Below, one piece after another: positions 111-61,187 of a DNA stretch of 64,000 nt. The first letter of the stretch is position 1. Each line of letters opens with the position of its first letter. The stretch comes from a virus (Duplodnaviria; Heunggongvirae; Uroviricota; Caudoviricetes): the IMG/VR virus record IMGVR_UViG_3300037400_003880; one strand, written 5' to 3'. Position numbers and translations under genes: made by a program. A model generated the notes under the pieces. It did not search any database and was not told the origin of the DNA. It saw only the letters and a list, made by a program, of their open reading frames with translations.

Positions 111-1844
111 ATGAGTACAAGCACAAATTTCCAATCAAATATTACTTTTAAAGGTAAATTTGATGTAAGTGAAATCCTCGCATCTATTAAATAGATGCGT
201 CAACAAATTTCTCAAACTTCTAATATTGAATTATTGGGAGATTTAGATAAATAGATTAACAAAGTTGAAGGTTTAGGAAAAACAATTTAGGCGCAAATAG
301 GAAAAGGTTTTTCTTCTCAGAAAGAATTCTCCTCTTTTCAATCTAATATAAGCAAAATAGAACTTGAGTTTGAAAAATTAGGTAATAGCTTTGATGACAT
401 AAATGTTGATAATTTAAAGAAATCTTTAAAAGCGGCAGATAAAGATATTAAAGATTTAGAGAGTAAGGCTAAAAAGGCTGCTTAGACTTTTGCCTCAAGT
501 TTTAAAGCAAGCTCTAATAATATTACTGGTGCTGAAAGTATTAAGAAGGAAATTATTGAAGCGGCAAAACAAGGAAAAAGTCTTGAAGAAACCTAGGCTC
601 GTATTAAAGAAATTTATGACAATCAAACCAAAGCCTTAGTCGAATAGAATAAGAAACTTAAATAGCAAAGAGAAACTGCGACAAAAAATCTAATTAATGC
701 TTAGGGGTCTTTTGCAAACGTCGGTCTTAAAGCAACAAACTTTAAAAACTCTAATGGTTCTGAGGTTTCATTGGCATAGTTTGCATAGATAAAAGCAGAG
801 TTTGAAAAAATTACTTCTGAATCAACCAATGCACAAGATGCAATAGATAAATTTAGTAAAGCTTTGGCTAAGAATAAAATTGAATTTAAAAATGCCTCTA
901 TGGTTCAAGGAAATTTTACTTAGGCTATTTCAAACTACGGGACAATGGTAGCTCCAGCAGAAGCTGCGCTGGATGAATTAAATAAATAGATTGGTAATAA
1001 TGAACGTTAGATTTCTAAGTTTGCTACTTAGTAGGTACAAATGTCTACTGCCCTTAATGATGAAGCAGGAAGATATAGAACTGCCGCGGCGGCAGTGAAT
1101 GAATATACTACGGCAAATAATGCATTAAATCAAACAAAACAAAAATTAGGAAATAGTAGTACATAGACTAGCAATGCAATTAATACTCTTAGAGGTTCTA
1201 TGGATGGTGCTGTAACTTCTTTAAGAGAAGGTGCATCAGCAACTGAAGACAGTGTTAATAGTTAGAAAAAAATGAACTCTACTCTTGATTAGTTAAAGAG
1301 TAGGATTGGATATTTGCTTTCTTTTGGTAATGCTTACTATCAATTAAGAAATATTATTAGATAGACTTTCACTGATGTACAAAAACTTGATAAAGCATTT
1401 GCATCAATTGCAATGGTTACTGATAAGACAGTACAAGATTTGTGGAGTACTTATGGTGATTATTCTGAAATGGCTAATCGCCTTGGACAATCTACAGAAT
1501 CTGCAATTAAAGCATCTGCATTATTCTATCAGCAAGGTCTTGACACCGCTGAAGCATTAAGATTAACAGAAGATACTATGAAGCTTGCTACTCTTGCTGG
1601 TGCAGACTTCGAAACTGCAACCTAGTAGATGACTGCCGCACTTCGTGGTTTCCATATGGAAATGGACTAGGGCGCGAAAGTAACAGACGTTTACTCAGAA
1701 TTAGCGGCAAATGCAGCGGCTGACGTAAATGGTATTGCTTATGCAATGAGTAAAACCGCGTCTATTGCAGCTAACGCCGGTATGGATTTTGAAACAACCG
1801 CAGCGTTCCTTACCAATATGATTGAGACTACTCAGGAAGCTCCT
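111..1844 (+). CDS. Tape measure protein, exon 1 (TAG=Gln)
   Basis: RBS plus ATG at 111; no TAA/TGA in frame; many in-frame TAGs; Ala/Lys/Gln-rich helical sequence; TMP-core-like segment ...KTASIAANAGMDFETTAAFLTNMIETTQEAP. Confidence 0.9.
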
Positions 1845-3091
1845 AAACAAAAAGTTAATTGCTTATTTTCTCTGGTAAAATTCTGAAATTTTTATAGTAG
1901 TTATTACAAAAATCTACTTTTTATTAGAAATAAATAAATAGGAGGTTTTATAATGACAAAACAAGAACGAGAAGAAAGAAGAGATAGAGTTGTAGAACTT
2001 TATGTCAGAGAAAATAAAAGTATAAATCAAATTGCAAATGAATTGAAGGTTGATTGGTCAACAATAAAAAGAGATTTAATAAGTCGTAATATTGAAATAT
2101 AGACTACTCGTAATCAATACAATAGTTCAAATGGGATTAATAACAATCTATTCAAAAAGATTGATAGTGCAGATTCTGCATATTGGCTTGGATTTTTATA
2201 TGCAGATGGTTCAATTAGGAAAGATAGGAATGAAATCACTTTGGATTTGTAGGAACAAGATAAAAAGGCAGTAGAAGATTTTCATCATTATTGTAATAAT
2301 AAAAATTCAATTAGAACGCATAATATTACAAAGAATGGAAAGACATATGTTAGTTATGTTTCTGGTTTTTCTAGTGCTTAGGTAAAAGAAAATTTAATTA
2401 ATTTAGGCTGCGTTCCAAAAAAGTCATTAATTCTTACTTTTCCTACTGAATAGCAAGTCCCCCAAGAATTTATTTATGATTTCATTCGCGGATATATTGA
2501 CGGAGATGGATATGTACAATATGATTAGACAAAACATAGATATAGAATTATAATTCTAGGGACTAAAGAATTTTTATAGGGACTTATTCAGCGATTAGGT
2601 CTATTTGAACATTGTTCAATAAATCAAGATAAGAATTCTAATATATATGTATTAACTATATCAAAGAAAGAAAATGTATTTAATCTCTTAGTTAAATTAT
2701 ATGAAAATTCAAAATTTCATTTGCAAAGAAAATTTGAAGTATATGAAAAAGCAAAAATGGGGGTATAATAAGTGATTATTATATGAATTGCATAGAATTG
2801 ACGGGAAACCCCTTAGAGCCTTTACTACTAAACCATACTAGTAATAGTGTAGTGGCGAGAATAATTACCTCGGTATAGTAAAAAAGTAAAGGATTGGGCA
2901 ATCCGCAGCCGAGTCCCATTTTATTAAAATGGAAACAGGTTCAACGACTATCGGGATTAGCTCCGTTAGACCACCAAGTGGGGTCGAAGTAATGCACTTC
3001 TCTTTGAGAAGAAGATATAGTCTGAGCTTATAGGGAAACCTATAGCAGCCTTAGAGGCGGGGTAGATTAACGACCTACTCGAACACAACTG
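1845..3091 (+). mobile_element. Group I intron in the tape measure gene
   Basis: Exon ends in U (CCT) and intron ends in G. Core elements: P AATTGACGGGAA ~2796, Q AATCCGCAGC ~2900, R GTTCAACGACTA ~2939, S AAGATATAGTCT ~3012; GAAA-capped P9. Removal gives continuous TTQEAP|ENIGTAMKTIIARF. Confidence 0.92.
1953..2768 (+). CDS. Intron-encoded double-motif LAGLIDADG homing endonuclease with N-terminal HTH (271 aa, 6 TAG=Gln)
   Basis: GGAGG RBS; motifs SAYWLGFLYADGSI and FIRGYIDGDGYV; ends at TAA. Confidence 0.9.
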
Positions 3092-6000
3092 GAAAACATT
3101 GGTACTGCAATGAAAACCATCATTGCAAGATTTACAGAGTTAAAAGAGAATGTTAGTGAAGCAGATTCTGAATTTGATGATCTTAGTTATAATAAAGTTG
3201 ATGATGCATTAAAGAGTGTTGGAATTAGCTTGAAAGATGCACAAGGACAATTTAGAGATTTGGATGAGGTATTTCTTGAACTAAGTTCTAAGTGGGACAC
3301 TCTTGATAGAAACACATAGAGATATATTGCAACTATTGCAGCAGGTTCTCGTCAGCAATCACGTTTTATTGCGATGATGGAAGATTATGATAGAACTATG
3401 CAATTGGTAGAAGTAGCACAAGATTCTGCTGGACGTAGTGAAGAATAGTTTGCTAAATATTAGGATACTGTTGAGTATAAAATTAATTAGCTAAAAAATA
3501 GTTGGGAACAATTTAGAACTAGTTTAATTGATAGTAATATTTTTAAAGAAGCTATTGATTCTTTAACTGGTTTTGTTTAGGGTATTTAGAAAATAGATTT
3601 TAAAAAGTTAATTCCTATGGCAATTATTGTCGCTCCGTTGGTAAAGAATTTATTTACTACTTTATCTAAAAATTTTTAGAATGCCCATGCATCCATGAGC
3701 AATTTGGGAAGAATCTTTACAGATGGTATAATTACAGGGATGAATGGCGCGGGGTCAAAAATTGCAAAGAAGATTCTCAATATAAATCCTTCTGATTTGA
3801 ATAAAGACGTAGGTGCAATAGAGCAAAAATTATAGGAAATAAATAAGAAAAAAGAAGAAATTTCTCAAAGGAAAGTTAAAATTGAGATTGATCAAATGAC
3901 GCTTCAATAGCTAGAAACTTAGCTAAATTCTCTTGTTGGAAGAAAGGATAAAGAAGCTGAATAGTTAACAGATCAATTAGTAGGAGATATTGAGAAATTA
4001 AGAAGAAAAATGGAAGAAGCAAAACCTACTATGGACAGCTATGACAAAAGTTTAGATGGATTAGAGAAAGAAGCTAGAGAGGCAGACGAATAGTTAAAGA
4101 AATTAAAGTTAGATTAGAAGCGAATTAATAATCTTTCTGGAGCGATAACTTCTGGTTTAGCTTAGGTAGGAACATCATTCTCGTTATTTGCTACGGCTTT
4201 ATTTTCTGGCGCTTCTGCTGCCGATAGTTTTAAACTTGCTTTAGGTTCTTTAGCAACAAGTGGTTTGAATTCTGTTCTTCAATTAGTTCCTTAGCTTATC
4301 ACAAAATATACTCAATTAACTCTTGCAGCATAGGCGACTGCTGCAGCAAATACAGAAGCCGCGGTGGCAGCTAAGGCTGCGGCGGCGGAGGCAGATGTTG
4401 CAATTGCATCGACAGGAGTCGGACTAGCTATTATTGCAATAGCTGCGGCAATTGCTGGATTAGGTTTGGCATTAAATGAATTGTACCAAAATTATAAAGA
4501 AACTCATAAGACACTTGATGAATAGATTGAGGAAGCTGAAGAGCGTCTTAAAGAATTAGAATCTAATGAAAATGAAAAAAAGAATTCTTCTAAAGAAGCT
4601 CAAGAGCAAGTTAAAAATACCGAAGACTTAATATCTAGATATGATGAATTAAGTAGAAAGCTTGTTAAGACAACGGAAGAATAGGAAGAATGGACATAGT
4701 TAATTGCTGATATTAATGAACAATTCCCAGAAATAGTATCTTCTTATGATGAAGCAAATGGGAAGATTAGTATATAGAGAGACTTATGGCAAGATATTGT
4801 TGATTTGCAGAAAGAAGCTGCCCAAGACGCTGCCCAAGAATCATTAATTGCAACTGCGGCAACAATTGGTCAAAAGAGAAGAAATGCGTAGTTATCATAC
4901 GCTTAGGCTGTAGATAAAGCTAATGGAGATTATGGCCTTAGTGAGACAAATACTTTAAATCGAAATTTTTATAATGAATTAATAAGCAAAGCTTCTTTTG
5001 ATATAGGGAAAAAAGATTATGAAAAGATAATTAGAGATGCAGCATCTGCGTAGGGCGTTGACTTAGAAAAAATAAATATTGCTTTTGGAAAAATTGGACT
5101 GACTTCAAATGAAGAATGGGAAAGATATTATAATGAATTAATAGATAGGAACTCAGATGGATGGGACACTGTAAATAGAGAAATAGAAAACATTTCCTCC
5201 TCCGCAGAGGAAACCTATTAGAAACAAATAGAATATTACAATGAACTAGAAAAGTAGAGTATTTCATCTTATTTATAGACTGGCGGAACTGAAAAAGGAG
5301 TCGCAGATTTAATTGCCTCTGGTGCAGCAGCTTATAAAACTAGAAATGTTAATTAGTTTAATTTAAATACCGTGGCAACTGCGGATGAAATTTATAATTC
5401 AAGCGGGTCTGTGGAAAGAACTACTTTGAAAGCTGCAACAGCAGGCATTTCTGAAGCATTTTTTGTCTCAATAAAAACAATGCAGACAAATGATTATCAA
5501 GAATGGAAAAAATTAAGTTCAGACTAGAAGAAGATTCTTAAAAGTATGGGATATGAAAATGAGTAGGCTTGGGAAGAGGCAAGAAAAGATTTAGCTGATG
5601 ATACTAATTTTGCAAAAGAATATGCAGAAGCTGCTTATATGTATAATGCAGAAAAAATAGCAAAAACATTAGATGAAAATCTCAGTTAGGCGCAGCAAGT
5701 TTTTATTAATGACTATATGACTAATTACACTACTATGACATAGAGTGAGATGGAATTTGCTCAAAAAACTATTCAAGGATATATTGATTCAATTGGAAAT
5801 GATGAAGATAGAAAAGTTTTACAAGAAGGATTAAATAACTGGGAAAAATAGTTCAAGGAAGAAAAACAAGAAATAGCTTCGCGTGTAAATAATTTTTTAG
5901 ATAATAATGTAAATGATTTTACTAATTGGACTATTGAATAGTTGTAGGCTTATGATACTTTAATTCAAAATGCAATTGATAGACTTGGAGCTGGAGCTGG

Positions 6001-8977
6001 AAAAGTTTATTCACAAGAAGTATACTCTTTATTTGATGATAAAAATCTTTCACCTAATTAGATTAATCAAGCATTAAATTCAATTGCTTGGGATTCTGCA
6101 ACAGGAATTAATTGGAATGATTTTAGAGAAAGTAGTATAGCGACCCTAAGAGAGCTAGGTATAGCAGGAGCGGAAGCATTCTTTGATCAGTGGGCAAAAG
6201 TTGAGCGTAAATATGGAAATTTATCTACTACACTTATTGGTGAATAGGTTACTGAATATTTAGATAATGTTAAAAAGATTACTGATGCAATCACCTCAAA
6301 TAGATCTGATATTGCTGAATTAAGCGCGAAAGTAAATTAGGGAATGTCTCTTGATTTTGATGAATATCAAAAATATTCTAAAGCTATTGAAGAAATGGGG
6401 CTTTCTGTTGAAGACTATTTATCAATAGATAAAAAAGGAAATATTGTTGCTAATACTAAAAATATAACTGATTTATTTGATGAAGCATATAAAAAGTAGA
6501 TTAAAGATATTGAAGACCAAATAAGTATGTTAGATGAAGAAGAAAAATCAAGAGAAAGCTAGCTTCAAGCACAATATGAATTAAATGTAGCTGAAATTAA
6601 TCATAATAAAATTTTGGAAGAAGGCGTGCGTTTATCTTTAGCTCAAGAAGAATCGGCATGGAGACAAGCAAGATACAAGGCTGAAACAAGAGGAGATTGG
6701 AACGAAGTAGACCATGCAGAAGCAGAAATAGGAAGAATTAACAAGCGTATGACAGAAAGTCTCCAAAAAAATTGGGATGAATAGCTTGCTGATGAAAAAA
6801 CTCGACTCAATGAAGCACTAGTTGCAAATCACGAGTCAAGAGTTAGCAGCGAAAAACAACTTAATGAGAGAGTAGGGCAACTTAGAAAAGAACATTTGGC
6901 TAATTTAAAAGTATATGATAAAGAGTTTGCAGAAGATACAAAAAAGTTAATAGATGATGAAAAAAAGAAAGTGGATGATGCAGCAAAAGCAGTAGACGAT
7001 GCTCAAAAGAAAGTTAAAGACGCATTAGAAAAAATTGCGAAGGCTGAGCAAGATGTAATTGATAAAACAAATGAATTGAATGAGGCTCTATATGGAGATC
7101 CTCTACATAAGAATAAACTTGATCCACTTTATAATTACAATACTCAACTAGAGCAATTTACTAAAAATGCCACTAGAGCAAAAGAAGCACTTTCAAAGAT
7201 GTAGCCTGGTGACGATGCTAGGTCATTAATTAATGATTTCTTAACAAATACTCATGGAGAACTAGTTAATAGACGTTCTCAAAATGAAGTTATAGCTGCA
7301 TCTATTGCTAATTATCAAGCTGATTTAACTTCAAGATTATCTGCTGAACTTGCTAGTATGAATGCTCGTTATGGAGCAAGCATTAGCACTAATACTTCTG
7401 ATTACATCTATTAGAATGGTAATCGAGTTGGTATTAATTTCTAGGCATTAAATGCAGCGAAACTTCCTGATTCTATTTCAGATTACGTAGAAGAAACAGT
7501 TGAAACAATTAATAAATTGCAAGATTAGATAGATGATAATGTTGATGAAATTAAAAAGAAAGAGCAAGAATTAAGAGATATGAGGAAAGATGCGCTTGAG
7601 AGAAGAAAATCTCTTGAGGATGAAGTTGTTAAGACATTACAAGAAAAAGCAAAAGAAGAAATTGATACTTAGAAAGATAAGTATGATGCATTGAAAGATG
7701 CTGATAATGATTATCTTGATGCTTTAGAAGATGCGATAAAAAGAGAAAGAGATTTAAGGAATAAAGCGAATGAATGGGATAGCTTAGCCACAAAAGAAAA
7801 GAAACTTTCTCTTATTCAAAGAGACACTTCTGGTGCGAATGAAAAAGAAGTTATGAAGCTTGAAAATGAAGTTCAGAATGATAGAGAAAAATTGTTAGAT
7901 GAAAGTATTGACGATATTATTAATGGCATGAAAGAGATGTATGAACTTCAGCAGGAAAGTAGAGAAATTGAAATTGAATACCAAGAAGCGATGCTTGAAA
8001 ATGCTGACACAATTAAAGCTGCTACAGCGATAATCGAGGGATGGCATACAAGTGATGATTTGGTAGCTTGGTTTGTTGAGAATGCTACTAAGGAGTTTAC
8101 TGAAGGCTCAGAAACTACAAAAGAAATTATGATTACCGAATGGCAAGAAACTGGCGACCAGATGGTCGCAGATACAGAACTTCTTCAAACAGATATTATG
8201 TCCGCGGCAGAGGTTACTTAGGAGCAGATTACTACTAATATCTATAATACAAGTGAGATATTAACTTCACAATCTCAACTTACTCTTGATACAGTGTTAG
8301 CTTCTACTAATGATGCTATTTAGAAGGGGCAACAGGCATTGGCTGATGCAATTGCTAGCGTTTAGGCGGCGAGAGATGAATATTCTGAAGCTATTGCAGC
8401 ATTAAGAGAAGCAGAAGATGCAGCAAGGTAGGCGCAGGCTGATGCCGAGGCAATGCGACAATCATTGGAGTAGCAATCTGTGGGAACACCGGTATCAGCA
8501 GGGTTATCCTCTTTCGCTACTAGTGCTTTTGGACCAATAGGATCTGAAGTATTGAAGCTTGGTGATCATTAGGCTGTAAAGGATGAACTTGCTCGCATTA
8601 TTAATGCAGGTCATTATTCTGATCAAGAACGCGCAGCATTGAGAAATTAGTTGTCTCATTATGCATCCGGTGGCTTAGTAGACTATACCGGTCCTGCTTG
8701 GGTAGATGGTACGCCGTCTCGACCGGAAGCTTTCTTATCCGCAGAAGATACTCAACGTATAGGTGAAGCGGCATAGCTACTTGCTGACTTGCCAATCTTC
8801 AGCGGCGACTCATTCAATAGTACGTCGATAACTAATGGAGATAGCTTAATCGAAGTTCACATTAATATAGAGAACATTGCTAGTGATGTAGACCTTGATA
8901 ATGCTCTTGATAAGATGAAGAGTGCAATTTGGGAGGCTGCAAATCCAGCAGGCTCATCAGTTATATTAAGCAAATAA
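3092..8977 (+). CDS. Tape measure protein, exon 2 (spliced product ~2539 aa)
   Basis: Track ORFs 3110, 6896, 7691 and 8789 share one frame and are separated by TAG in the stretches I read; C-terminal HYASGGLVDYTGPAWVDGTPSRPEAFL motif typical of TMP ends. Confidence 0.9.
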
Positions 8978-17518: not shown

Positions 17519-17881
17519 ATGAAAATACTTAGGAGTCAAACACAAGTTTTATACGATATATTTAAAAGTTTTGAAAAAAACGAGGATTTTTCAATTTCTG
17601 TTAAATATAAAATTTTAAAATTAAAAAAACTTTTAGAACAAGAACTTGAATATAATTTATAGCTTTTAAAGGAATTAACTTTTAAATATGGAATGATTTC
17701 CGAAGAAGGGGAGGTACTTATTAAGAAAGAATTCATAGAAGAAGTTTCAAAACAAGTTGAAGATTTTAATAATCAAGAAATAGAGCTTCCTGATTTATAT
17801 TTTACTGTAGAAGAGCTTTCAATAACCAAAATTAATTGGAGAGACTTAGAAATTCTAATGCCTCTAATTAAGGATGAGTAA
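17519..17881 (+). CDS. Hypothetical protein (120 aa) at the end of the tail module
   Basis: GGAGG RBS, ATG 17519, one TAG, in frame with track ORF 17693. Confidence 0.7.
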
Positions 17882-17907: not shown

Positions 17908-17963
17908 AAATGACCTGTATAGAAGTTTTGTGTAAAACATAGAACTTTTTGTACAGGTCATTT
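17908..17963 (+). terminator. Long hairpin closing the tail module
   Basis: AAATGACCTGTA...TACAGGTCATTT inverted repeat with an inner AAGTT/AACTT stem. Confidence 0.6.
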
Positions 17964-18030: not shown

Positions 18031-18444
18031 ATGGCTTATGGTTTTAATCAACAGCCACAAAATCTTACTGTACAACAAACTCTTTAGCAAGGAAATTAGA
18101 TGGGTAATCCACAAAATATTCAGCCCCTCTTTCCTCAGCCGCAAGGAAACGTTTACAATATTAATTCAACTTTAGAAGTCGCGAACGTTCCGGTCGGCGC
18201 AGGAGTATCGGTGGCGCTTTGCTTGCCAGAGAATGTCATGTACATAAAAACAATGCAAAATGGAAATCCGTTATTTTATCCATATAAAATAACTCCATTT
18301 ACAAATGAGCCGGCGCAAGAAGAGAAATAGGCCGCAACTATTTCAATTGAACAGCTTGCATCTTAGCTCAAACAATGCATTGAAAAAGTAGAAGACTTAG
18401 AGTCTAAAATTAAAACTAAATAGAAAGGAGCTGATTTATTATGA
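18031..18444 (+). CDS. Cassette gene 1: Gln/Pro/Asn-rich N-terminus, small beta domain and coiled coil (137 aa)
   Basis: GAGGTGA RBS; TAG=Gln joins MAYGFNQQPQ... through ...KGADLL-TGA. Confidence 0.8.
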
Positions 18445-18674
18445 TTTAGAATTTAACATAGCTCGTATAGATTCTGCGCGGCCGCAATCCGCAAGAAATG
18501 GTTATGTCAATGGTTCAAAATCAAAAAATTAATGATCCTAACATAACTCAGCTTATCAAATTCGCTGAAAGTGGTGATATGGATAATTTAGTTAATCTCG
18601 CTAATTCCATCTGCTCATAGAGGGGATTGGATTTCAATTCTGAATTTCAAAACTTTATGTCTATGATGAAATAA
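18441..18674 (+). CDS. Cassette gene 2: small helical Met/Gln/Asn-rich protein (77 aa)
   Basis: ATGA overlap with gene 1; MIQNLTQLVQILRGRNPQEMVMSM...CSQRGLDFNSEFQNFMSMMK; missed by the track because of 4 TAGs. Confidence 0.8.
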
Positions 18675-18705
18675 GCGTGAAATAATAATTCTGGAGGTAT
18701 TATAA

Positions 18706-19656
18706 ATGGAAGAAAAAGGTTTAACTGTCGCTGATGCGCTAGCTTTGCGTAATGGCGGAAACAACAATGGTGGCTTTGGTTTTGGTGACGGAAGCGGCTG
18801 GTGGGTCATTATCCTTATCCTTTTCTTAATGTCAGGATTTGGAGGTCGTGGATATGGGAATAATGGTGGCGGTGGAGACACTAACACTGTATTTGTTCCT
18901 TATGGCGGCGGAAATGGCTTTGGTGGTAATAACTGGTCAGCTTGTTGCACTCCAGCTACAGCCCAAGGTATGACAGATGCATTTAACTTTAACGCTCTTG
19001 ATACCGGAGTAAGGGCAACTCATGAAGCAGTAACAAATGGTTTTTATACAAATAACCTTGCTACTACTAATCTTGGGACTGCAATTCAGCAATCTTTTGG
19101 GCAGGCGGCTCTTTAGAACTGTCAAGGTTTTAATGGTGTAACTGGCGCCATCAATGGTGTCAATAACACTGTGAATTAGGGTGTGAACTCAATTCAGTCA
19201 AGTCTTTGTAATGGATTTAATAGCGTAAATCAGGGACTTGCTAATAATGCTTATAAGCTTTCTGAATGCTGCTGTGATATGAGACAGTCAGTAATGCAGT
19301 CTAACTTCAATAATCAAACTGGTTTTAACACACTTGGTACTGCCATTGCAACTAATGCTTGCGATATTGAAAGAGGTCAAGATGATATTCGTTATTTAAT
19401 GGCTTAGAATCAGAGTCAGACTATTGCAGCAATTGACCATGTTGGAGATCGCTTAATTGATTATATGAACAACAGTAAGATGGATGAGCTTCGTACTGAA
19501 CTTTAGAATGCTAGATTCCAGATTTCTCAGGCTGCACAAACTGATGCTATTATTAGTCAACTCCAGCCTGTTGCTAAACCTTCCTGGCTCGTAAATTCTC
19601 CTTATCAGTCATTAAATTATAATGGCGTAAATGCTTGTGGCTGCGGCAATTTCTGA
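18706..19656 (+). CDS. Cassette gene 3: Gly/Asn-rich protein with one TM helix, Cys clusters and coiled coil (316 aa)
   Basis: GGAGG RBS; WWVIILILFLMSGFGG hydrophobic helix; ACC, ECCC and ACGCG motifs; TAGs join track ORFs 18706 and 19183. Confidence 0.88.
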
Positions 19657-19668
19657 GAGGTGATATAA

Positions 19669-20094
19669 ATGGCTTGTCCAAATGTATCATGTCTTTGCAA
19701 CCATATGGTTCTTTCATAGAGTGTCACCTTTACTGATGATACTCTATTGATTGATTTGCCCGCTGGCGCATATGAGAATGGAGAAAAATATTGTATCGTT
19801 ATTGCGCAAGATATTCCTGTAGAAACAACGATTGCCGCTGACGTTGCTATAACAATAGGTGGAGATACGGCGACCACTTATCCGCTTGTTAATTATAATT
19901 GCACAAATGTTTAGGCTTGTTAGATTACACCTAGAACCCGTTATGCAACAAGAGTCTTTACAAATATTGGAGAAGGAGTTTTTAAACTTCTTGGTAACTT
20001 AAATTGTTTCAATTGTCGCAGGAGCGGGGCCGCGCCAGCGTTACCAATTCCTGTCAATAACGCAACTACTACAACAGGAGGGGAAAACGGATGA
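19669..20094 (+). CDS. Cassette gene 4: Cys-rich beta-sandwich-like protein (141 aa)
   Basis: GAGGTGA RBS; MACPNVSCLCNHMVLSQSVTF...YCIVIAQDIP...NCTNVQACQITPRTRY; absent from the track. Confidence 0.82.
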
Positions 20095-20576
20095 AAGAGC
20101 TTTAGAAGAAAGTGAGAAAAGAGCTTGATAATATTGCTGAAAAAGGAATAACCTCCTCAAATCTTGAAGCAACAAATAAATTAGTAGATATTTATAAAGA
20201 TATTCTTGAAATTTGTGAAAAAGAAGATGGAGGTGACGAAATGTACGGAGCACGTGGAAGATATAGGGAGTATGATGACTATGACACTTATAACGCTCGC
20301 GGTGGAAGAGGTGGCAGTTATAATGACCGTTATAATCACTACCCTCTCGACGATCGCACAGAAAGATACTTTATAAGAATGAGAGAAGGTATGGAGAATT
20401 ATGATGCTGGTCGTTCTCGTTATAGAGATGGTGGCTCAAATGAGAGGATGGTTGAAGGAATTGAAATGACTATGGGAGCAATCGTGAACTTTGTTGAATC
20501 CTTAATGGATATTGCTGAAACCTCTCAGGAGAAAGAAATCGTTAGAAAGTATGTTGATAGGATTAAGAAAATCTAA
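20091..20576 (+). CDS. Cassette gene 5: helical protein with an Arg/Tyr/Asp/Gly-rich low-complexity middle (161 aa)
   Basis: ATGA overlap; one TAG near the start, in frame with track ORF 20112. Confidence 0.85.
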
Positions 20577-20938
20577 TGTTTAAATATTACAATGCCAATC
20601 CTTTTGGACGATTAGTTAACGATTGCACCGTAAGAGCCATATCTCTTGCAACAGAATAGAGCTGGGATTCTACATATAGAAAACTTGCAGATTATGCTCG
20701 TTCTGAAGGAATTACTTTTTCAGAAATTGAATTTATAAATGATTATTTAGCAGATTAGTTTCCTCGTTTTTGCCCAGAGGAAAGAATTTATACGTTAGCT
20801 GATTTTTTAGATTTGAAGTTGCCAGGTCGTTGGTTAGTAACAATGAGTGGACATATTACTTGTGTAATAGATGGTATATGTTATGACACCTTTGATCCAT
20901 CTAAAAGATATGTCTGGTGTATTTATAAAGTTAAATAA
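20576..20938 (+). CDS. Cassette gene 6: small putative Cys-His-Asp (papain/C39-like) hydrolase (120 aa)
   Basis: TAATG overlap; YYNANP..LVNDCTVRAIS...VTMSGHITCVIDGICYDTFD; 2 TAGs. Confidence 0.75.
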
Positions 20939-20940: not shown

Positions 20941-20964
20941 AAGAGGTAGGGGAACCTACCTCTT
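20941..20964. terminator. Bidirectional terminator at the convergence of + and - transcription
   Basis: AAGAGGTAGG-GGAA-CCTACCTCTT flanked by A/T tracts. Confidence 0.8.
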
Positions 20965-23467: not shown

Positions 23468-24383
23468 GATGAGAACTTTTAATTTTTTTAGGATCTTGCT
23501 TCAGAAGCACTCTTAATTCAGATGGAACATTTACCACGTTCGGGTAGGTAGTAATAAAAGATTCTCTGCTTGCACTTTTTAGCCATTCAATAATTTTCTT
23601 ATCTAAATCATCTACCGGCTAAGGATGAAATGGAAACTTCATTCTAATTCCAGCTTTCTTATAAAAAATACCCATCTTAACATATCTTAACTGATAATTA
23701 AGAATTGTCTCTTCTGGTCTTTTTTCAAATTTAAAAATGACAGAAGGATTAGAGAAGTTTTCAAAAAAGAAGTTTTCATCATATCTGAAATCTATTATGA
23801 TATAACTATTGATAAGTGCGCAAAATCGTTCAAATTTATAGAAAGTCTCGGCATCTTTTACCCATAACGGATGATAAAAATTAAAACGATGATTTTTAAA
23901 ATCAAGAAGGCAATCATACGCACCATCTATATAAAAGAAGTTATGGTCAACGAATGTCATTTTCATCCTATCTTTCTTATAATCACTAAAATCATTTGAC
24001 TCTAAACGAATCAATGAATTCTTTTTTAGTTCATCATATGACTAATTAGGAATTGATAGCTTATAAGATACAGGATCATAGAGGTCATAAGATGGTGCGC
24101 ATTCTGCCATTTCAGGTTTTAGTGGAGAATAAGTGTTATAGAATCCATATCCATATACTGTTTTCTTATCGCCATTAAGAATTAAAGAACGAGGAATTTG
24201 AGTGTGAGGATTGTCTTTAAAATAGATAATAGAGTTGTAGCGTCCCTCATTTTCTTGCGGGCGCATCATTTTAACAATCTGATTATTATTCTTAAAATAA
24301 TGATAGATTTTCATAAGTTCGAGGTTAGGGGCTGAACGCCCCTTATGCCATAAATCAATATCATATAATCCTATAGTAGCCAT
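23445..24383 (-). CDS. Hypothetical protein related to phage PNLxLMK radical-SAM-associated proteins, no CxxxCxxC (312 aa)
   Basis: Track ORFs 24042..24383 and 23619..24014 are in frame and joined by TAG; N-terminus IGLYDID...APNLELMKI. Confidence 0.6.
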
Positions 24384-26580
24384 TATTCTTCAACCTCCAC
24401 TCTTTCTGTTGCCGATTCAATAATCCAGCCCTTATCATCAAGAACATTGATTTTCTCAAACAGCGGCCACTCAGTGTTCTTATACTTCTTCGGAATGAAA
24501 TTATCCCCACGTCGCATACCAGTTACAATTAACTTAGTACCTCTCTGGAACCAGCTCTTTTCAACAACGTGCTTTACGCCATCTGAACCTCTTTCAGAAA
24601 TCTGCTTATCCCAAGCTGCAAACTGATTCTTCCATACCTTTACCGTAATGACACCAGTAGGTGTTAAAAGAATAATTGAACTTCTGTTCTTATCCTTGTC
24701 AATTACAGTTCCTGCAATTCGAGTAATCTTAAACATAGTGATTTCAGAACCATCTTTTGTTGTAAAGGAACGCTCAACTTCTGGCTCTTCAGGAAGTTTC
24801 ATAGCATCGCTAACTCCATAAATATCATTTCTCAAATTTTGCAGCTCATGGTCATGATAGTAAAAACCAAGACTATCCATTTCCCATTTAGATAAATTTC
24901 CTTCTGCATATTTATCCCAAATTTCTTTCAATAATTTCTCATTCAAATTATTTAGGATTTCTTCTTGATATTCCTTCATCCAAGCTCGAACTGGATCCAT
25001 TCCCTTCTTATAAATATTGTCCCACAAATTTTGCTTAATTTTTGCAAATTGTTCATTCCCTTCGACTCTAACTTCTTCAAGTTTTGTATCGTCATAATTC
25101 TCCAAATAAAAACGCATTGCAATTGTATCTAAGTCATAATAGATTCCGTCTTTAAAACTCTTAAGATACTTATTAAAATTAAACAACTTGCACTCAAATT
25201 GAAGCTCTGGCGGAATCATATCTTTTGCAATAAGCATCTGCATATTCTATAAGGTAATTCTTTTTTTCTTATCTGATACGCTTTCAAGATATAATTCCAT
25301 AACTTTTTTTCTGTCACCATTATAAAGTTCATCAAATGCACCCGCCTTTATCAAGGCAATCATTTGGAGCTTATTTACCTTAATCTTTTCCAAGAAAGTC
25401 TCAATTGAATCATAAGGTCTGTTCTTAAAAATGTCATAAACAAGTTGAGTGCCAATTCTGTTGATACCTTTCATACCATAAATGATTGCGTTTCTGTTAA
25501 TATCCGGTTTGAAAATTAAGTCGGAAAGGTTAATATCCGGAGGAAGTACTGTAATGCCTTTTGTCTTAGATTCACCTATCGCCGCACTAATCTTACCATA
25601 GTTAACGCTCTTATTTTTAACCTTAACGTCTTCATCATCATTTACGTCATCAGCATCAAGCAGGTCGGCACCACCGGCATTAACAATTAAGCACGCACAG
25701 TTCCAATAAATTGCAGGATAATTTGTTGCAAGATATAGAGTCTGAATACCTACAAATGAATAAGCAAGAGCATGAGGTTTTGCAAATGCGTAACCCATTT
25801 GAGGTCCCATTGTTGTTTCCCAAACATACTCTCCAAGATTCCTGTTTGGGCATTGAGATACGAACTTCTCTTTTAAAATAGGAATTTCTTCCATATGCTT
25901 TTTTGCGACTGTCTTTCTTGCCGCATTCGCTTCTTTCAAAGAAAAATGAGCTAACTTTTCGTCCATACAAACCATCATCAAATCTTCCTGAGATGCTGGG
26001 ACACCATAGTTTGGAAGATAATATGGTTCAAGAATTTTAATTTCCTCTTCGCTTAATCCTCTGTTCTTTACTTCTTGATACCAATAATTCATATTTGACT
26101 TCAATCTACAATATCTGTCAAGAGGGCGTTCTTTACCTTTTTCTCCCATCAGTCTCATAAGTGCATTTGCGGAAGTAAGCTCTGCCGGGTTCTTTGGCTT
26201 TATCATTTTTGCAGTTGCTAATCCTACACCAGTGCTAAACTGGAAGACATCAAGAACTTCACCTTTACCCAGAGCATCCCATAATCTCTGGTCATCAAGA
26301 TTAAGTTTAGATGGGTGAAGATAACTGTCATAGATTTCTCTTAACTTCTTTTCCTTTGGAACAATTCCATCCTTCTGCATCAACTCAATACAAGTCGTAA
26401 TTTTATCACAGATTTCAGTTACAAGAAAGTCATACTTAACGTCTCCCATTGCCTCGGCGTCATGAAGAGAAAACTGTGTTGTCAAGTCTCCATTTGGGCT
26501 CCTCATAATCGCACCAGTATCAGTCGGATTATTATTATAAAGAATAACACCAGATGCGTGCTGACCTCTTTTATTTACTA
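24383..26580 (-). CDS. dnaE: DNA polymerase III alpha subunit, exon 3
   Basis: (L)VNKRGQHASGVI, KYDFL, GYAFAKPHALAYS, OB-fold RIAGTVIDK; one internal TAG at 25247-25249. Confidence 0.93.
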
Positions 26581-27787
26581 CGGTTATCTTGATTTTTCAA
26601 TCAAGCCCTGACTATCTTTTAATTAGTATAAAATACTAATAATCCCATTTCGGTTCTCAGCCACATTGTTGCCTCCGTGGCGACACGTATCAATAGTGTC
26701 CCTACTCTCTGTCTCACCAGAGATAGTCGATACAGGCTTAACTTTTTCTTAACGGATATTTAAGAGTATTATCATAATAATTTTTTCCATAATTTATATT
26801 AGATACAACAGATGGGTCGCATCCAACTAAATCAGCAATTTGTCTATTGTTAAGTTTATTTTCTTTTAATAAAGATTTAATTATATTTGCTCTATCAATA
26901 AGCTCTTGCTTTTTACTACTGTTTTGTCTAATTGGATAGTCAATATCTCTTTTATGTGCTAAACCTTTATTAATCCTATAAACCACATCTTCATTTATTC
27001 CATAAATCTTAGCAATTTCTGCATTACCTTTATTTTCTTTTAATAAAGAAATTATTTCATCAACAATTTCTTCAGAAATTTTAATGTTTTGTTTTCTTAA
27101 AGGATAAATTAAATTATCGTTATGATATTTTTTACCAGAATTAATCATACAAATTAAACTTAAAGAAACATTATATTTATTTGCTATATCTGTAAGCTTG
27201 ATATTTTCATCTTTTATTAGACGGTATACTTCCTGAATTTCTTCATTGGAAAATGTTTGACGGATATCTTGATAGTCTTCATTATTTTTTCTTTGTTGAC
27301 CACCAGTTGTTAAATTATATCCGTTGTCTCTAACGAAAGATTTCTTTTCTTTTATCCAATATTGTTCTCTTTCATCTAATAAAGATTTGTCAATAACTTG
27401 TTCTAATAGAACTAACTCAAAATTTTCAATACCATATTCTCTAATTTTTTTATGGAATAAACAATTATAATCATTACAAGTTTCATGATAAGCAGAAGAT
27501 AAATGTAATCTATGTCTTTCTTCAATAGACTTAGAAGTTTGTCCTACATACCATTTACCTGTTATTTTATTTTGATAACCATATATATAATTCATTATTA
27601 TCACCTCTCATTAATAAGGTAATAAGATGATAAATACTCTTCAATAAAATCGTGAAGAAAAGTTTTTCCCACGGGATTACCATACCTATGTCTCACGACA
27701 GGAGCTTCAGGCTTCCCCGTTAGCTAAGATTAAATCTTAACCCCATTGATTAATGGAAAAGGTGTTTAAGGGCCAGTTTCTTCTTCG
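26581..27787 (-). mobile_element. Group I intron 2 in dnaE
   Basis: P1 AAGGGU/GCCCUU with U.G at the splice site; P CTAACGGGGAAG, Q GGTAATCCCGTG, R CCTGTATCGACTA, S AAAGATAGTC; ends in G; splicing restores IEG-L-VNKRGQHASG. Confidence 0.92.
26738..27604 (-). CDS. Intron-encoded GIY-YIG homing endonuclease with repeated HTH-like C-terminal domains
   Basis: YIYGYQNKITGKWYVGQT..IEER; repeated ..INxGK/YPxR units; lies between the Q and R elements. Confidence 0.9.
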   Translation of the reverse strand: MIIMNYIYGYQNKITGKWYVGQTSKSIEERHRLHLSSAYHETCNDYNCLFHKKIREYGIENFELVLLEQVIDKSLLDEREQYWIKEKKSFVRDNGYNLTTGGQQRKNNEDYQDIRQTFSNEEIQEVYRLIKDENIKLTDIANKYNVSLSLICMINSGKKYHNDNLIYPLRKQNIKISEEIVDEIISLLKENKGNAEIAKIYGINEDVVYRINKGLAHKRDIDYPIRQNSSKKQELIDRANIIKSLLKENKLNNRQIADLVGCDPSVVSNINYGKNYYDNTLKYPLRKS

Positions 27788-28139
27788 ACCCTTCAATTGA
27801 TTCAATAATTTCTAGAAGACCCGGATACTTACTAATTTCATCAATGAAAGCTTGAATCGGCGCTCTACCCTTTTCTGCATTACCGTTCACAACATCACTA
27901 ATGCTCCATAAGAATCCACGCTCTTGTGGAATTAGTCCACTAAGATATTGTGTTGTTTCAACTTCCAAACCATTCGGATATTCTTCTGAACGGTATCCAC
28001 GACCTGCTGCCGCAATTGCTGAACGCGTACCTTCTGTGCCAAAAGTACAAACCTGAATTACGTTTAGTTCGCCACGTTCTCTCCGAATTGCTTCAAAAAT
28101 TTTCTTTCTTTTAGATGGGGAAAGGTCTATATCAATATC
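27788..28139 (-). CDS. dnaE: DNA polymerase III alpha subunit, exon 2
   Basis: DIDIDLSPSKR...QVCTFGT...IESIEG; 352 nt, phase-compatible with exons 1 and 3. Confidence 0.92.
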
Positions 28140-28997
28140 CTTTTTACACCCTCGGTTTCCCGATATTTATTAGGGGAATAGACTATCTCTTTAGGACTTT
28201 CGTCCATAATAGGCACTACGGAATGGCATTCATCTCCACTCCTCTTAGAGATTTTACAATCTCAATTTAGTCGTTACACTTTTTAAACTCTAATCTATAT
28301 CCTCTGGACTTATAATTTTTTCTCATTCCACTAATGCTACAATTGAACTTTTCATTGGCATATTCTGCCGCAGCCTTAACGGATTGGAAAGATTCAATTT
28401 CTACATTGTCACTTTCTCTTATTAAGATGCACTCTCTGAAATTCCTTGTAGAACTCATTGTGTTATAACTATCATAAAGATTATTTATTCGATTACTCCA
28501 CTCCAAATTCTCTACTTTATTATTTTGTCTATTTTTATCTTTATGATTCACTTCAGGTAAATTATTTGGATTTGGAATGAAAGCCTCTGCAACTAATCTG
28601 TGAATTAAGAAATGGTAAGTTATATTATCTTTACATAGTTTAATATTTTCATAACCAGATTTTTGATACCAAGTTTTCATTATTCTTGGTTCTTTAAATT
28701 TGTAACTGATAACTTTTCCATCATCAGTTATTGTATATCCAGGAAAATCTTTGATTTCTTTTTCCATTCTATCACCTCGTTTATAAAGTATTAGAATGAG
28801 ATAAAATCTTCAACTTTTCCAGAAAAATAGATAAAGTTTAACTTAGCACGGTATTAACTGCTATCCTTCTCAGGACCGTAGTCTCTCTTACGAAGCTGCT
28901 TCGTGCATTGCCTTATTCCACTTCTACCGTTAGCCTTCAATTAAGAAGACACCGCTGAATGCGTTCACCTATTTTATACTGCCCAATATTAAAGTTT
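28140..28997 (-). mobile_element. Group I intron 1 in dnaE
   Basis: P1 ACUGCCU/GGGCAGU; P CTAACGGTAGAAG, Q AATACCGTGCTAAG, R TGTAACGACTA, S AGAGATAGTC; ends in G; splicing restores RVELP|DIDID. Confidence 0.92.
28267..28767 (-). CDS. Intron-encoded HNH homing endonuclease (NUMOD4-HNH type)
   Basis: GYTITDDGKV...IHRLVAEAFIPNPNNLPEVNHKDKNRQNNKVENLEW; stop overlaps the R element. Confidence 0.92.
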   Translation of the reverse strand: MEKEIKDFPGYTITDDGKVISYKFKEPRIMKTWYQKSGYENIKLCKDNITYHFLIHRLVAEAFIPNPNNLPEVNHKDKNRQNNKVENLEWSNRINNLYDSYNTMSSTRNFRECILIRESDNVEIESFQSVKAAAEYANEKFNCSISGMRKNYKSRGYRLEFKKCND

Positions 28998-30365
28998 AGG
29001 CAGTTCTACACGTTCTTTATTCAAGAATCTCCAATAAGGGAGTTCCCAAACTAGCGGATCAAGCTGAGTAATGCCTAATAGGTAGTTTGATAAGAAACAT
29101 ACAGAAGAACCACGTCCCGGACCTACGATTGAGCCGCACTCCCAGAACAAATTAATAAAATGCTGGAAAGTATTAAAATACTTGAAAAGACAATCTTCAA
29201 GCTTATCTCCAATTGTCTTAATTACATCTGCTTCAATTTCAAGTCTTTCAAAATATTCATTTTTACTTAACCTCTTTTTCTTAAGAGCATTAAGACATTC
29301 ATTGACCCAATATCTCTCTTGAATATTTTTACTACTAAGCAAACCGCTTAAAATAGGATACTTCTCTAAAAAGTCTATATCAAAATCATATTGAGCTTCA
29401 TAATCCTTAACCTCAACTTCCGGAATGATAGATGGTCTTTCAAGTTCAAAAGACTCAATTTTATCATAAATTTCCATTGAAGCCGCACACATTTTCTTAA
29501 ACTCATCTTCTGTAAAGGCAACTTTAAGATTTTCATACGCTTCATCATTATCCATCATATGCGCATCAAAATAAAATTCATCAACCTCTCTATCGCCTTC
29601 CTTTGAATTCAGATAAGCTTTATGAAGAGGACGCTCTTTTGCTGTCAGATAATGAGCATCGGAACCAATTACAATTTTCCTATTATATGCCTTTGCAATC
29701 ATTCCAACTCTTTTATTGAATTTAATTTGATCCTTTGATTGACCTGCGGCGACTTCAATATAAAAGTCTTCTCCAAACAAATCAATATTCCATCGAATAA
29801 ATTCGTCAATATCGCATTTGCACTGATAAGCTACTTCTGCGTCGTTCTGTCCTTCAGCTTCAATTAACTTCAAGACCCTTCCGCCTAAGAAACCACCAAT
29901 ACAAGCTGTTGTTGCAATTAATGAATTCGGATATTTCTCAACAATTGCTTTTAGTTCTGACATTTGAGTTGGAACTCTTGTCATACCACGAGCTGTAAAA
30001 CTATAATACCAAGCAGTTGAACTTAACTCTCTTAATGCCTTGTGCCCATCAGCATTTTTTGCAATTAAGATATAGTGCCAATATCTCTCAATATTCTCTC
30101 GGTTCTCAACTAGATAAATTTCATTTCCACACGCACATTTAAAATCTTCTGGAATTGCGCTGCTAGCCTTTAACTTCTTTTCTGCCTGTAACCACTTCAA
30201 ATGTCCACTTAAACATTCATGATCCGTTAATGCAAGTCCGCGCATTCCTAATCTTGCCGCTGTCTTAATCATGTCTGGAATCTTATTGATTGAGTCAATC
30301 AAACGAATGTTGCTATACTCACTGTGACTATGAGTATCAAATCTTGCTACTCCATTTAAGCTCAT
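28998..30365 (-). CDS. dnaE: DNA polymerase III alpha subunit, exon 1 (PHP domain; spliced product ~1305 aa)
   Basis: HSHSEYS, ALTDHE, GSDAHY, GPGRGSS, RFLNKERVELP. Confidence 0.94.
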
Positions 30366-30398
30366 TCAGTAGACCTCCCTTTCTTATTTTCTATATAT

Positions 30399-30427
30399 AT
30401 TATATCATATTTTTTGAAAAAAGTCAA
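30399..30427 (-). promoter_or_regulatory. sigmaA-type promoter of dnaE
   Basis: TTGACT-17-TATAAT with TG. Confidence 0.85.
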
Positions 30428-30455
30428 CACTTTAAATAGTGCTGACTTTCTCCTA

Positions 30456-30644
30456 TCAATTTAAAATTTCATCAATTTCTCCAATCATTTTCTTAGTGAT
30501 TGGATCCATAGAGGTACGATAATCATTTTCATATCTTGTCAACAGATGATCAATTTGATTAAGTTTATCTGCATATCTTTTACATCTTTTCAACAGACTA
30601 AACCAATTCTTTATCTTTTTAATACAAGTCATTCTGCTCACCAT
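30456..30644 (-). CDS. Small hypothetical protein
   Basis: Track ORF; true start probably MTCIKK. Confidence 0.5.
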   Translation of the reverse strand: MVSRMTCIKKIKNWFSLLKRCKRYADKLNQIDHLLTRYENDYRTSMDPITKKMIGEIDEILN

Positions 30645-30700
30645 TGTTTAACAAGAGTAACAATAACCCACTCATCGATCAATTTTGTTTTTATATACAT

Positions 30701-31393
30701 TCAATCCCCTCTTTTAAAGGTATATCCTTTGAACTCTTTCCCATCTTCAATTCTTTTTGCAATTGTATGCCTATCTATTTTTAATTCTTCCATTGCTTTT
30801 CTTAATGATGGGAAGATATGCTCTTTTCCATTTTTGTCAATAGCAATAATAGAAATGCCTTTACGTTTTAATGAGACATCTCCAGTGAAATTAGTAGAAA
30901 TTTCTTTATCATTATCATCTATAAAACAAAAAGTGTAACCCTTGCAAGAATAATTCCCCGGTTCTCCATGACAAATACGAGAAATATGAGCAACATTAGC
31001 GTTTAATTGTCTTGCCGCTTCATGAATGCTTTTATAGATTTTCTCTTCTTTCGTTGTCAAATTTATAGATTTGATTCTCTTGCTATTTTTTTCACTTCCA
31101 GAATTAATAGCCCCGCCATAATTCATATTATAACCATATCCATCCTGATAATGAGTATTCTTTTCTTTTATCCAATACTCTTCATATTTGTCTAAATCTT
31201 CATTCAAATATTCTCCTAAGATAGTCCATTCAAAATTTTCTTTTCCATATTTCTTTATGGCAGCATGAAAAATAATTTTTTCATTTTCAAGATGTTTTAA
31301 ATGTTCTTTTTTTCTTTCCTCAAGAGTTCTAGTGGTTTGACCCACATATCCTTTATTATTAATGAGATTTTTACAATAATAAATGTACCCCAT
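30701..31393 (-). CDS. Free-standing GIY-YIG homing endonuclease with NUMOD1-like repeats
   Basis: GYIYYCKNLINNKGYVGQT; YKSIHEAARQL and FPSLRKAMEEL units; no intron core found around it. Confidence 0.88.
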   Translation of the reverse strand: MGYIYYCKNLINNKGYVGQTTRTLEERKKEHLKHLENEKIIFHAAIKKYGKENFEWTILGEYLNEDLDKYEEYWIKEKNTHYQDGYGYNMNYGGAINSGSEKNSKRIKSINLTTKEEKIYKSIHEAARQLNANVAHISRICHGEPGNYSCKGYTFCFIDDNDKEISTNFTGDVSLKRKGISIIAIDKNGKEHIFPSLRKAMEELKIDRHTIAKRIEDGKEFKGYTFKRGD

Positions 31394-56579: not shown

Positions 56580-56665
56580 ACCCGATTTTTTTAGATAAAA
56601 AGAAAAATATAAATACTTTTAAATGAGCGCAATGCGCGTGATAAATAAAAAAAGAGGTGATTTTT

Positions 56666-57775
56666 ATGGCTTGGGATTGGGATGAGACAAAAACCCCTAG
56701 ACTTTCTATTATTAAGATTGGTAATGAAACCTTCTATGTGAAAGATGCTGAAGCACGTGCAGCTATTGATTCTATTACTGCTACTGTCGGCGGTGTAATG
56801 CACTGGAGAGGTATTTCTACTACTGATCCTACTACTGGAACCGTAACTATTGATGGTAAGGTACTTACCCCTGAGGCTGGTGATGTTGTTGGTTATACTA
56901 TTGGTAGTGGAGTTTCCGCAACTCAACTTGAGTATGCTTACAATGGTTCTACCTGGCAAGAATTCGGTTCTACTGGAACGTTAAAGGCACTTGCTTTTAA
57001 GGATAATGCAACTGGTTCTTTTGTTCCTCTTGGTGAAATTACTTCAGCTACATTTACAGGAAATTAGCTGACTTCTACTGGTACCTTTACTCCTGCTGGT
57101 ACTATTTCCGCGGAATTTACTGGGGATACACTTACCTCTACTGGTAACTTTACTCCTGAAGGTTCTGTAAATGTTTTTGCTGTTGAGGCAGGAATAGGTG
57201 ATACTGCAAACTATACTCCTAGTGGTACTGTAGACGGTTCTTTCGTTGGAGCACGAATGACTTCTACTGGAACATTTACCCCGGCAGGTACAATCTCTGC
57301 TCCTACTGTAACTCCGACAACTGGTAGCGTTGCAGAAGTTGACCAAATTAATACTGTAGTTTCTGAAATTCAAAATGCAGTAAAAGCAAGTGCAAATTCT
57401 GCGACTGAAACACTTACATTTACTACTCTTGAAGCTTCTGACATTACAAAAGTTGCAGCTATTACTACTAAGTCTGCAACAGTTCTTACTGATGTAGATG
57501 TTGCCGCACCTACTTTTACAGGAACAGAAGGAAATGTTTCTGTTTCTGGAACTACAGCAGGTTCTCTTCAGGATCTTAGCTTCTCTGGAAATGGGGCGGT
57601 TATTACTGCTACTTTCACAGGAACTCAAGGCAATGTATCCGTTTCTGGAACTCCAGAAGGAACTATTTCCGCAGACTTTACTGGAACTCAGGGCAATGTT
57701 TCCGTAGCTGGAACTCCTACTGGTTCTATTAGTGTTGTTTGGGAAGGTCAAGATACTTCTGTTACTGTTTCTTAA
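56666..57775 (+). CDS. Thr/Gly/Ser-rich repeat fibre or adhesin A (369 aa)
   Basis: One TAG joins track ORFs 56657 and 57257; FTGTxGNVSVxGTPxGTIS repeats. Confidence 0.8.
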
Positions 57776-57794
57776 ACAAATTAAAAAGAATGGT

Positions 57795-57820
57795 GTGTGG
57801 CATTTTAAGAAATGCCACAC
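57795..57820 (+). terminator. Hairpin between the fibre paralogs
   Basis: GTGTGGCATTT-TAAG-AAATGCCACAC. Confidence 0.6.
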
Positions 57821-57849
57821 CCACCTATTATTAAATGAGGTGAATTAAA

Positions 57850-60898: not shown

Positions 60899-60906
60899 AA
60901 ATATTA

Positions 60907-60973
60907 AAAGTGCTCTGCACTTTACATAAAAGACACAGTAAAAAGGTGACATAAGTTTAGTTCTTAACTAAAC
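60907..60973 (+). promoter_or_regulatory. Two short hairpins downstream of VR/IMH (candidate target-recognition cruciforms)
   Basis: AAAGTGC-TCT-GCACTTT (60907-60923) and GTTTAGTT-CTT-AACTAAAC (60955-60973). Confidence 0.6.
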
Positions 60974-61043
60974 GTGGGGATGATTACACAGTCATGTTCA
61001 TGTTTGGTTCTCCTTCTGTTTTATTCTAAAAAAATATGAAAAA

Positions 61044-61187
61044 CCGGATAACTGCAACTATAATGCTGGTGGTGTTGTGTTGTACGTTGGTGGTAACTAT
61101 AACAACCAGAATGCGAACCACGGGTTGTTCTACTTGAACGGTAACAACGCGGCTTCTAACTCGAACGGCAACATTGGCGTGCGACTA
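61044..61187 (+). repeat. DGR template repeat (TR)
   Basis: 14 AAC/AAT codons in the VR frame; diverges from the VR after GGCGTGCGACTA (IMH*). Confidence 0.96.

Follow-up and report, generated by a model that had tools for sequence, protein, structure and literature searches.

The six-gene cassette located at positions 18031-20938 of the virus record IMGVR_UViG_3300037400_003880 (the window, a stretch of 64,000 nucleotides) has direct sequence homologues among described proteins, and parts that resemble described systems in fold or layout. PHROG places genes 3, 5 and 6 (g3, g5 and g6) in the families phrog_16490, phrog_28802 and phrog_3754/phrog_15863, respectively, all of unknown function, and crAss-like direct homologues are labelled in RefSeq as 'spike protein/glycoprotein' or 'outer capsid protein/viral fiber'. 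Pfam, NCBIfam and PDB sequence searches with all six proteins retrieved no family. Bead III of the tail fibre gp47 of Pseudomonas phage Pa193 (9b45) and related tail-fibre domains resemble g4 in fold, but g4 is a free protein of 141 amino acids (aa) with 8 Cys residues. Josephin-2 (6pgv), the C39 domains of PCAT1, LahT-type and ComA (7s5j, 6mpz, 5xe8) and PeiR (8z4h) share with the g6 family the fold and the Cys-His-Asp order, although this family differs from these papain-like enzymes in its low identity (5-18%), in having no Pfam match and in the lack of a transporter. The C-terminal domain of BclA (PF18573), from the Bacillus exosporium nap, weakly matches the alternative g4 found in other copies of the cassette and shows a similar stalk-plus-tip layout, but the stalk of the module is a predicted coiled coil instead of collagen and its hosts include non-spore-formers. 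Like influenza HA2, a class I fusion protein, g3 presents a Gly-rich hydrophobic peptide followed by Asn-rich heptads; unlike these proteins, it has no C-terminal anchor, ends in a PxP motif and a Cys tail, and no envelope is known. The novelty is the module as a whole, its parts resembling known folds, and in the literature no paper treating these genes as a module and no virion proteomics of a carrier have been found.

The cassette is here proposed, with a probability of about 0.4, to be a late, optional operon of gut phages whose product would be a stalk anchored in the membrane and bearing a tip that can be exchanged; the peptidase would mature this structure, which would help the progeny in the gut. 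This reading was drawn from sequence and models.

Genes for the proposed stalk, tip and peptidase

The window comes from the genome of a large tailed phage in which TAG encodes glutamine, and its closest relatives are viral contigs of 179-180 kb. Tape-measure and Dit genes lie upstream of the cassette on the + strand, and genes for a resolvase, a dUTPase, a Clp-like protease and DNA polymerase downstream on the - strand. Translation with code 15 has revealed six open reading frames (ORFs) on the + strand, encoding proteins of 137, 77, 316, 141, 161 and 120 aa with 19 in-frame TAG codons, and table 11 fragments all six. The comparison with two relatives indicated purifying selection, with nonsynonymous rates (dN) of 0.05-0.20 and synonymous rates (dS) of 1.2-2.4 or saturated. 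The six genes listed in the original prediction, open only when TAG is read as glutamine and under purifying selection, are therefore real, and the amino-acid compositions given there for their products were confirmed. The translational coupling claimed for the cassette applies to three of the five junctions, which overlap (g1/g2 and g4/g5 by 4 nucleotides, g5/g6 by 1 nucleotide), whereas g2-g3 and g3-g4 are separated by 31 and 12 nucleotides and each has its own ribosome-binding site. Similarly, the GC content is higher than in the tail genes (0.378 versus 0.310), as had been stated, but it is not special with respect to the replication arm (0.344). Since GC is elevated only in relation to the tail genes, and the range at third codon positions is the same as in the replication arm, there is no sign of foreign origin in the composition of the cassette.

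The core stalk protein is encoded by g3 (18706-19656, + strand, 316 aa). Profile and family comparison revealed a layout of an acidic N-terminus, a hydrophobic segment, a coiled coil, Cys clusters, a PxP motif and a Cys tail. The hydrophobic core W32-M42 (18799-18831, + strand), flanked by Gly, Asn and aromatic residues, lies in a segment present in 144 of the 149 family representatives, with a median uncharged run of 16 residues. The N-side of this segment is net negative in 143 of those 144 proteins and positive in none, and according to the positive-inside rule the segment is probably a membrane anchor that leaves the C-terminus in the cytoplasm. It does not correspond to a signal of the Sec type, and no other hydrophobic segment occurs in the six proteins, which makes the earlier suggestion of a host-surface-remodelling system doubtful. 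The middle of g3 (about residues 91-287; 18976-19566, + strand) reads as a continuous coiled coil because residues are gained or lost there in units of 7 and 11: all 36 non-modal lengths in close homologues fit 7a+11b (-11, -7, 7, 11, 14, 18, 22 and 33), a rule that 28% of integers would satisfy, in related sequences that are not independent. Of the 144 representatives, 136 contain a CCC motif and 135 a Cys tail; the g3 of the window carries a single CCC and a single CC, plus a CGC tail. The weak profile match of g3 to the heptad region of haemagglutinin HA2 (E 0.002) covers the heptads only and is likely compositional; it probably explains the RefSeq 'spike' label of the g3 homologues.

Two properties considered for g3 have been discarded. 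A double-glycine leader was rejected because a leader-like start is present in 28 of 144 proteins and GG at the right distance in only 5, and heavy expression was set aside when the crude index (rank 4 of 50) was replaced by a proper codon adaptation index (rank 14 of 58).

A group-I-like intron interrupts g3 in several relatives, always at one site in the Trp-Trp codons before the hydrophobic segment. It has 236 nucleotides in L028 (4763-4998) and L048 (5763-5998), and 740 nucleotides with an HNH-like ORF in L029 (4259-4998), and an S-like element occupies the same site in L012 and L047. The 5' exon ends in T and the intron in G, and splicing would restore the reading frame, which speaks indirectly for transcription of g3. 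Separate genes for endonuclease-like proteins, of 342-346 aa and HNH-like, also recur in or beside the cassette: between g3 and g4 in L021, L026, L030 and L046, between g2 and g3 in L051, before g3 in L170 and after g4 in L173.

The next gene, g4 (19669-20094, + strand), encodes a Cys-rich all-beta domain and occupies an exchangeable slot. In its model, with a predicted local distance difference test score (pLDDT) of about 90 over residues 11-110, the domain is all-beta and matches residues 245-340 of the Pa193 tail fibre 9b45 (Z 5.7, root-mean-square deviation (rmsd) 3.6, 90 aligned residues, 8% identity), the next row having 3.3. These residues correspond to the third bead of a trimeric fibre (PMC11456595). 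The fold was found in BFVD in many tail-fibre proteins (E < 1e-3) and also in small crAss proteins, one of them equal in length to the product of the gene that follows g3 in cr271_1, and a weak Foldseek match was obtained with the Pa223 capsid spike (E 0.06). Both g4 and its best 120 homologues, from a search restricted to lengths of 70-263, are free proteins without a long chain or a baseplate-binding N-terminus.

Among the g6-seeded loci, the g4 slot is filled by this type in 37 cases and by a BclA_C-like protein in 31, and no locus contains both. The alternative g4 shows a weak, below cut-off match to BclA_C (PF18573, E 5e-7), and the two types are unrelated according to the profile-profile probability (0.3%). 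The g4 of the window has no Pfam match, and so none to PF18573; BclA or TNF chains were not among its listed fold matches, an absence that does not exclude a jelly-roll. The gene after g3 always encodes a small domain, which is of a type found in fibres wherever it was typed. The occupation of a single slot by two unrelated fibre-type domains gives the strongest indication of g4 being a tip or decoration. An additional 60-aa gene with a hydrophobic start follows the BclA-like g4 in many cassettes of that type (L098-L134); it is absent from the window-type cassettes except those of the C. perfringens phages. Complex prediction with three C-terminal parts of g3 and three g4 chains gave a score of 0.00, uninformative either way, and atlas searches with homologues of g3 and g4 retrieved only unnamed phage clusters or nothing.

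The last gene, g6 (20576-20938, + strand, 120 aa), encodes the protein that had been predicted as a cysteine protease. The candidate triad C17, H93 and D104 is unchanged in all 42 homologues, the most distant of which are 35% identical. The model of a 68%-identical homologue read with table 11 (L007; pLDDT 87) displays the papain arrangement, with an N-terminal helix that carries the Cys and a beta sheet that carries the His. Nearly all 50 rows of the VIA search with this model were papain-like (best Z 6.8, rmsd 3.9, 97 aligned residues), and the fold call rests on this agreement, the Z value itself being middling. The fold of the homologue and the invariant Cys-His-Asp bear out the earlier assignment, and the g6 family is a candidate papain-like (clan CA) cysteine peptidase. 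The C39 rows tie with Josephin and PeiR (Z 6.0-6.8), none of the 42 family members matched Pfam C39, and no ABC transporter was found among the six genes or their neighbours. Shape searches in the atlas with the g6 model also gave unnamed phage clusters or nothing. Three cassettes of Bacteroidota phages lack g6 and contain an HExxH protein, suggesting that the module needs a peptidase, not specifically g6. Most versions of the module are accompanied by a peptidase-like gene.

Distribution and dispensability of the module

The gene order was kept in 16 of 16 g3-seeded loci, except that two are cut or shortened at the g5-g6 end. As an independent test, 73 g6-seeded loci with enough upstream DNA were analysed, and g3 was present, in the same gene order, in 68 of them and g5 in 72, although many contigs are related and these counts overstate independence. 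This co-conservation upholds the proposal of a self-contained, undescribed and structural-looking module. Its recurrence in gut Firmicutes phages, mentioned in the original prediction, was also observed, but it is not restricted to them.

The g3 family comprises 2,184 clusters at 50% identity (E < 1e-10) without annotated function, and the g4 family more than 5,000 clusters at 90%. Homologues of g3 are present in six cultured C. perfringens phages, in the cultured Butyrivibrio phage Ceridwen, in which all six slots are filled, in the cultured Bacteroides uniformis phage C3_41T2LP, in crAss-like genomes of three families and in two Methanomassiliicoccales viruses; named cultured crAss phages were not among the g3 matches. 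In the Bacteroidota versions g3 is directly followed by a small protein, and a protein with a coiled-coil end, an R/D/Y-rich protein, DUF7841 and often an HExxH protein are found. In the Methanomassiliicoccales viruses (L171, vir335; L172, vir215) the g3 homologue lies beside the tail gene phrog_5302, in vir215 a reverse transcriptase is also adjacent, and large membrane-anchored proteins follow g3 in both. The recorded sources of the carriers are gut, faeces, rumen or sewage. Together with the very different envelopes of the hosts, this speaks for habitat or membrane, and not wall chemistry, as the relevant factor.

The C. perfringens phages phiCP13O, 26F, 9O, 34O and 39-O are about 94-95% identical to CPD1 on both flanks and do not contain g3, and phiCP26F lacks g1-g4. 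The existence of such near-identical cultured phages without g3 means that the module is not needed for lytic growth in culture in those relatives. Three metagenomic contigs also lack g3-g4 or g3-g5 when compared with relatives of 86-98% identity, with assembly error possible in these cases. The module is thus optional. Confident assignment to a described virion or lysis function was put forward originally as grounds for abandoning the idea of a new system, and none was obtained. A sample of 401 genomes from one phylum contained g3 in 1 genome (with a narrow profile, the match being the centre genome), and 113 genomes of one family contained it in 5, so that in this thin sample it appears as phage cargo and not as a host gene. 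One Clostridia genome (G001) carries two separate g3 copies, on contigs C10 and C14.

On the 3' side of the cassette, the C. perfringens phages carry a gene for a 132-aa protein and one for a 175-aa Glu/His-rich protein (L051 7018-7936, L183 6343-7099). The 175-aa protein is ferritin-like by eye, has no Pfam match, and its gene is retained in the phages without the cassette. In smaller phages, genes for a small membrane protein and helix-turn-helix-like proteins are located just 5' of the cassette (L173 2066-2462, L053 3325-3603, L134 1541-2141); the one tested has no Pfam match, and none of these genes was seen in the window.

Cassette boundaries, expression and neighbouring genes

The cassette had been described as bounded by a long hairpin and a bidirectional terminator. 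The hairpin (17908-17963, + strand), between the tail operon and the cassette, was corroborated by a stem of about 26 bp with z = -6.7, not equalled in any of 200 shuffles. In about 11 relatives the sequence of the outer stem varies, pairing is kept and a T-run follows; RNAalifold gave no consensus for these relatives, their arms failing to align. The hairpin is a probable terminator of the tail transcript. Its apex contains an AT-rich conserved motif (17927-17944, + strand), which occurs as a single exact copy in the window, is found once at the same position in 41 loci, many of them redundant, and survives the loss of the stem in L017, L046 and L064. This motif is a candidate dedicated promoter or operator of the cassette, which the terminator would overlap. 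A sigma-70 promoter scan performed no better than chance, and Rfam gave no match for the hairpin or for the introns of g3. The element at 20941-20964 (- strand) is clearly an intrinsic terminator of the convergent replication arm, but its T-run is on the - strand only, and the bidirectional function claimed for it was not upheld.

Of the Gln codons, 32% are TAG in the cassette; the proportion is lower in the replication arm (11.5%, p 2e-4) and higher in the tail genes (46%, p 0.06). The use of TAG is reportedly associated with late expression (bioRxiv 10.1101/2021.08.26.457843). Since TAG use in the cassette is closer to that of the tail genes than to that of the replication genes, the cassette looks late-expressed.

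Other features of the window have also been recorded. A helical-looking 120-aa gene (17519-17881, + strand), without PHROG match, lies ahead of the cassette in almost every close relative and is retained in L080, where the cassette was lost. The tape-measure gene (111-8977, + strand) is split around an endonuclease gene (1953-2768), and the DNA polymerase gene (24383-31393, - strand) around homing endonuclease genes (26738-27604 and 30701-31393), all of them probably within introns. A diversity-generating retroelement (59366-62385, + strand) includes a tail protein (phrog_5302), a reverse transcriptase (phrog_1423), a variable repeat (60723-60874) and a template repeat (61036-61187), with 25 of 27 mismatches at template A. 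Two unannotated genes of 372 and 432 aa (56657-59148, + strand), without PHROG match, open the + arm, show the strongest codon bias with almost no TAG and possibly encode abundant structural proteins.

Proposed function, alternative explanations and significance

According to the proposed reading, g3 would insert into the cytoplasmic membrane of the host, its stalk directed towards the cytoplasm, and g4 would cap or decorate this stalk. The proteins g1 and g5, with low-complexity regions and helices, and g2 would act as scaffold, glue or chaperone, and g6 would cleave g3 or a partner, so that the assembly is matured or released. The cysteines might bind metal in the cell or form cross-links after lysis. 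The finished structure would accompany the released progeny, either attached to the virions or on membrane fragments carrying these, and would help the progeny to stick, clump or last in the gut. A more specific version, distinctly doubtful, is a transmission structure new for tailed phages, in which a protease-matured, cysteine-locked, membrane-rooted stalk lattice would wrap, tether or clump the progeny after lysis; it would be common to phages of Bacillota and Bacteroidota and, in reduced form, of archaea.

Several observations weigh against the proposed reading. The hydrophobic core of g3 is short for a full membrane span and its codon adaptation is moderate. The fold score of g4 is middling (Z < 8), and having a fold in common does not establish function. 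In the archaeal viruses g3 lacks the Cys tail and clear partners. The C. perfringens module lies amid small genes after the lysis genes, with an antirepressor next to it, and homologues of g5 and g6 are missing from it; neither g6 nor HExxH is found among its typed genes, and the peptidase slot may not be universal.

The genes between which the stalk is encoded are compatible with a different, intracellular role. The product of g1 (18031-18444, + strand, 137 aa), without Pfam, PHROG or NCBIfam family, has a low-complexity N-terminus (57% Q/N/P/Y), a small conserved domain and a C-terminal coiled coil. The 77-aa product of g2 (18441-18674, + strand) is M/Q/N-rich, probably helical and a possible chaperone; an STI1-like chaperone was considered and rejected, as it had no Pfam or PDB support. 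The product of g5 (20091-20576, + strand, 161 aa) has helical ends and a low-complexity middle that is 50% G/Y/R family-wide (17% G, 17% Y, 16% R) and rich in D. In eukaryotic FET proteins, phase separation is driven by low-complexity regions rich in Tyr and Arg. It is possible, although rather unlikely, that g3 tethers to the membrane a scaffold or condensate of g1 and g5 that g6 later dissolves, and that this compartment organises assembly, shields phage DNA or times lysis, with g5 perhaps binding nucleic acid. Such a compartment would work in any host, no cassette protein has an export signal and the topology of g3 is inward. However, both typed occupants of the g4 slot have folds of outward-facing fibres or spore naps, and g1 and g2 are missing from some cassettes (L125).

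It is also unlikely that the module encodes a conventional, optional fibre or head spike of the virion, in which a g3 trimer docks through its N-terminus on the capsid or neck, with g4 as tip and the hydrophobic segment buried in protein and not in lipid. The match of g4 to a tail-fibre bead and, weakly, to the Pa223 spike fits this explanation, as do the g3 copies found within head modules and the RefSeq spike or fibre labels, which are apparently based on similarity only. Nevertheless, siphophages of 39 kb, crAss-like phages and phages of 180 kb, whose capsids are unrelated, all keep the same N-terminal segment, the charge asymmetry of this segment is of the membrane type, and decoration fibres are not known to require a kit of six genes that includes a peptidase.

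The order of parts in g3, the HA2 match and the peptidase slot recall a class I-like membrane-inserting or fusion spike, primed when g6 exposes the Gly-rich N-terminal hydrophobic peptide that precedes the heptads, but this is improbable given the Cys tail where a C-terminal membrane anchor would be expected, a match limited to heptads and a tailed phage with tape measure and Dit. The spore-coat-like system of the original prediction, a kit for remodelling coat or exosporium, is the least credible explanation in spite of the Cys-rich proteins, the BclA_C-like g4 of other copies and the many carriers that infect Clostridia, since no coat-protein family was matched, g4 of the window is not BclA-like in sequence and the carriers include phages of Bacteroides uniformis and Butyrivibrio fibrisolvens, crAss-like phages and, for g3, Methanomassiliicoccales viruses, whose hosts are not known to sporulate.

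If the module were a plain optional fibre its novelty would fall, and if the stalk lattice were real its role in gut phages would be that of occlusion bodies in insect viruses. The proposed reading would correct the RefSeq 'spike' labels. The cluster counts of g3 and g4 make this a very common, unexplained module of gut phages. Its presence across host phyla, combined with its dispensability in culture, suggests a function of importance in the animal, and cultured pairs with and without the module (CPD1 or XP41-N3 versus phiCP26F or phiCP13O) make its contribution to the persistence and spread of gut phages directly testable.

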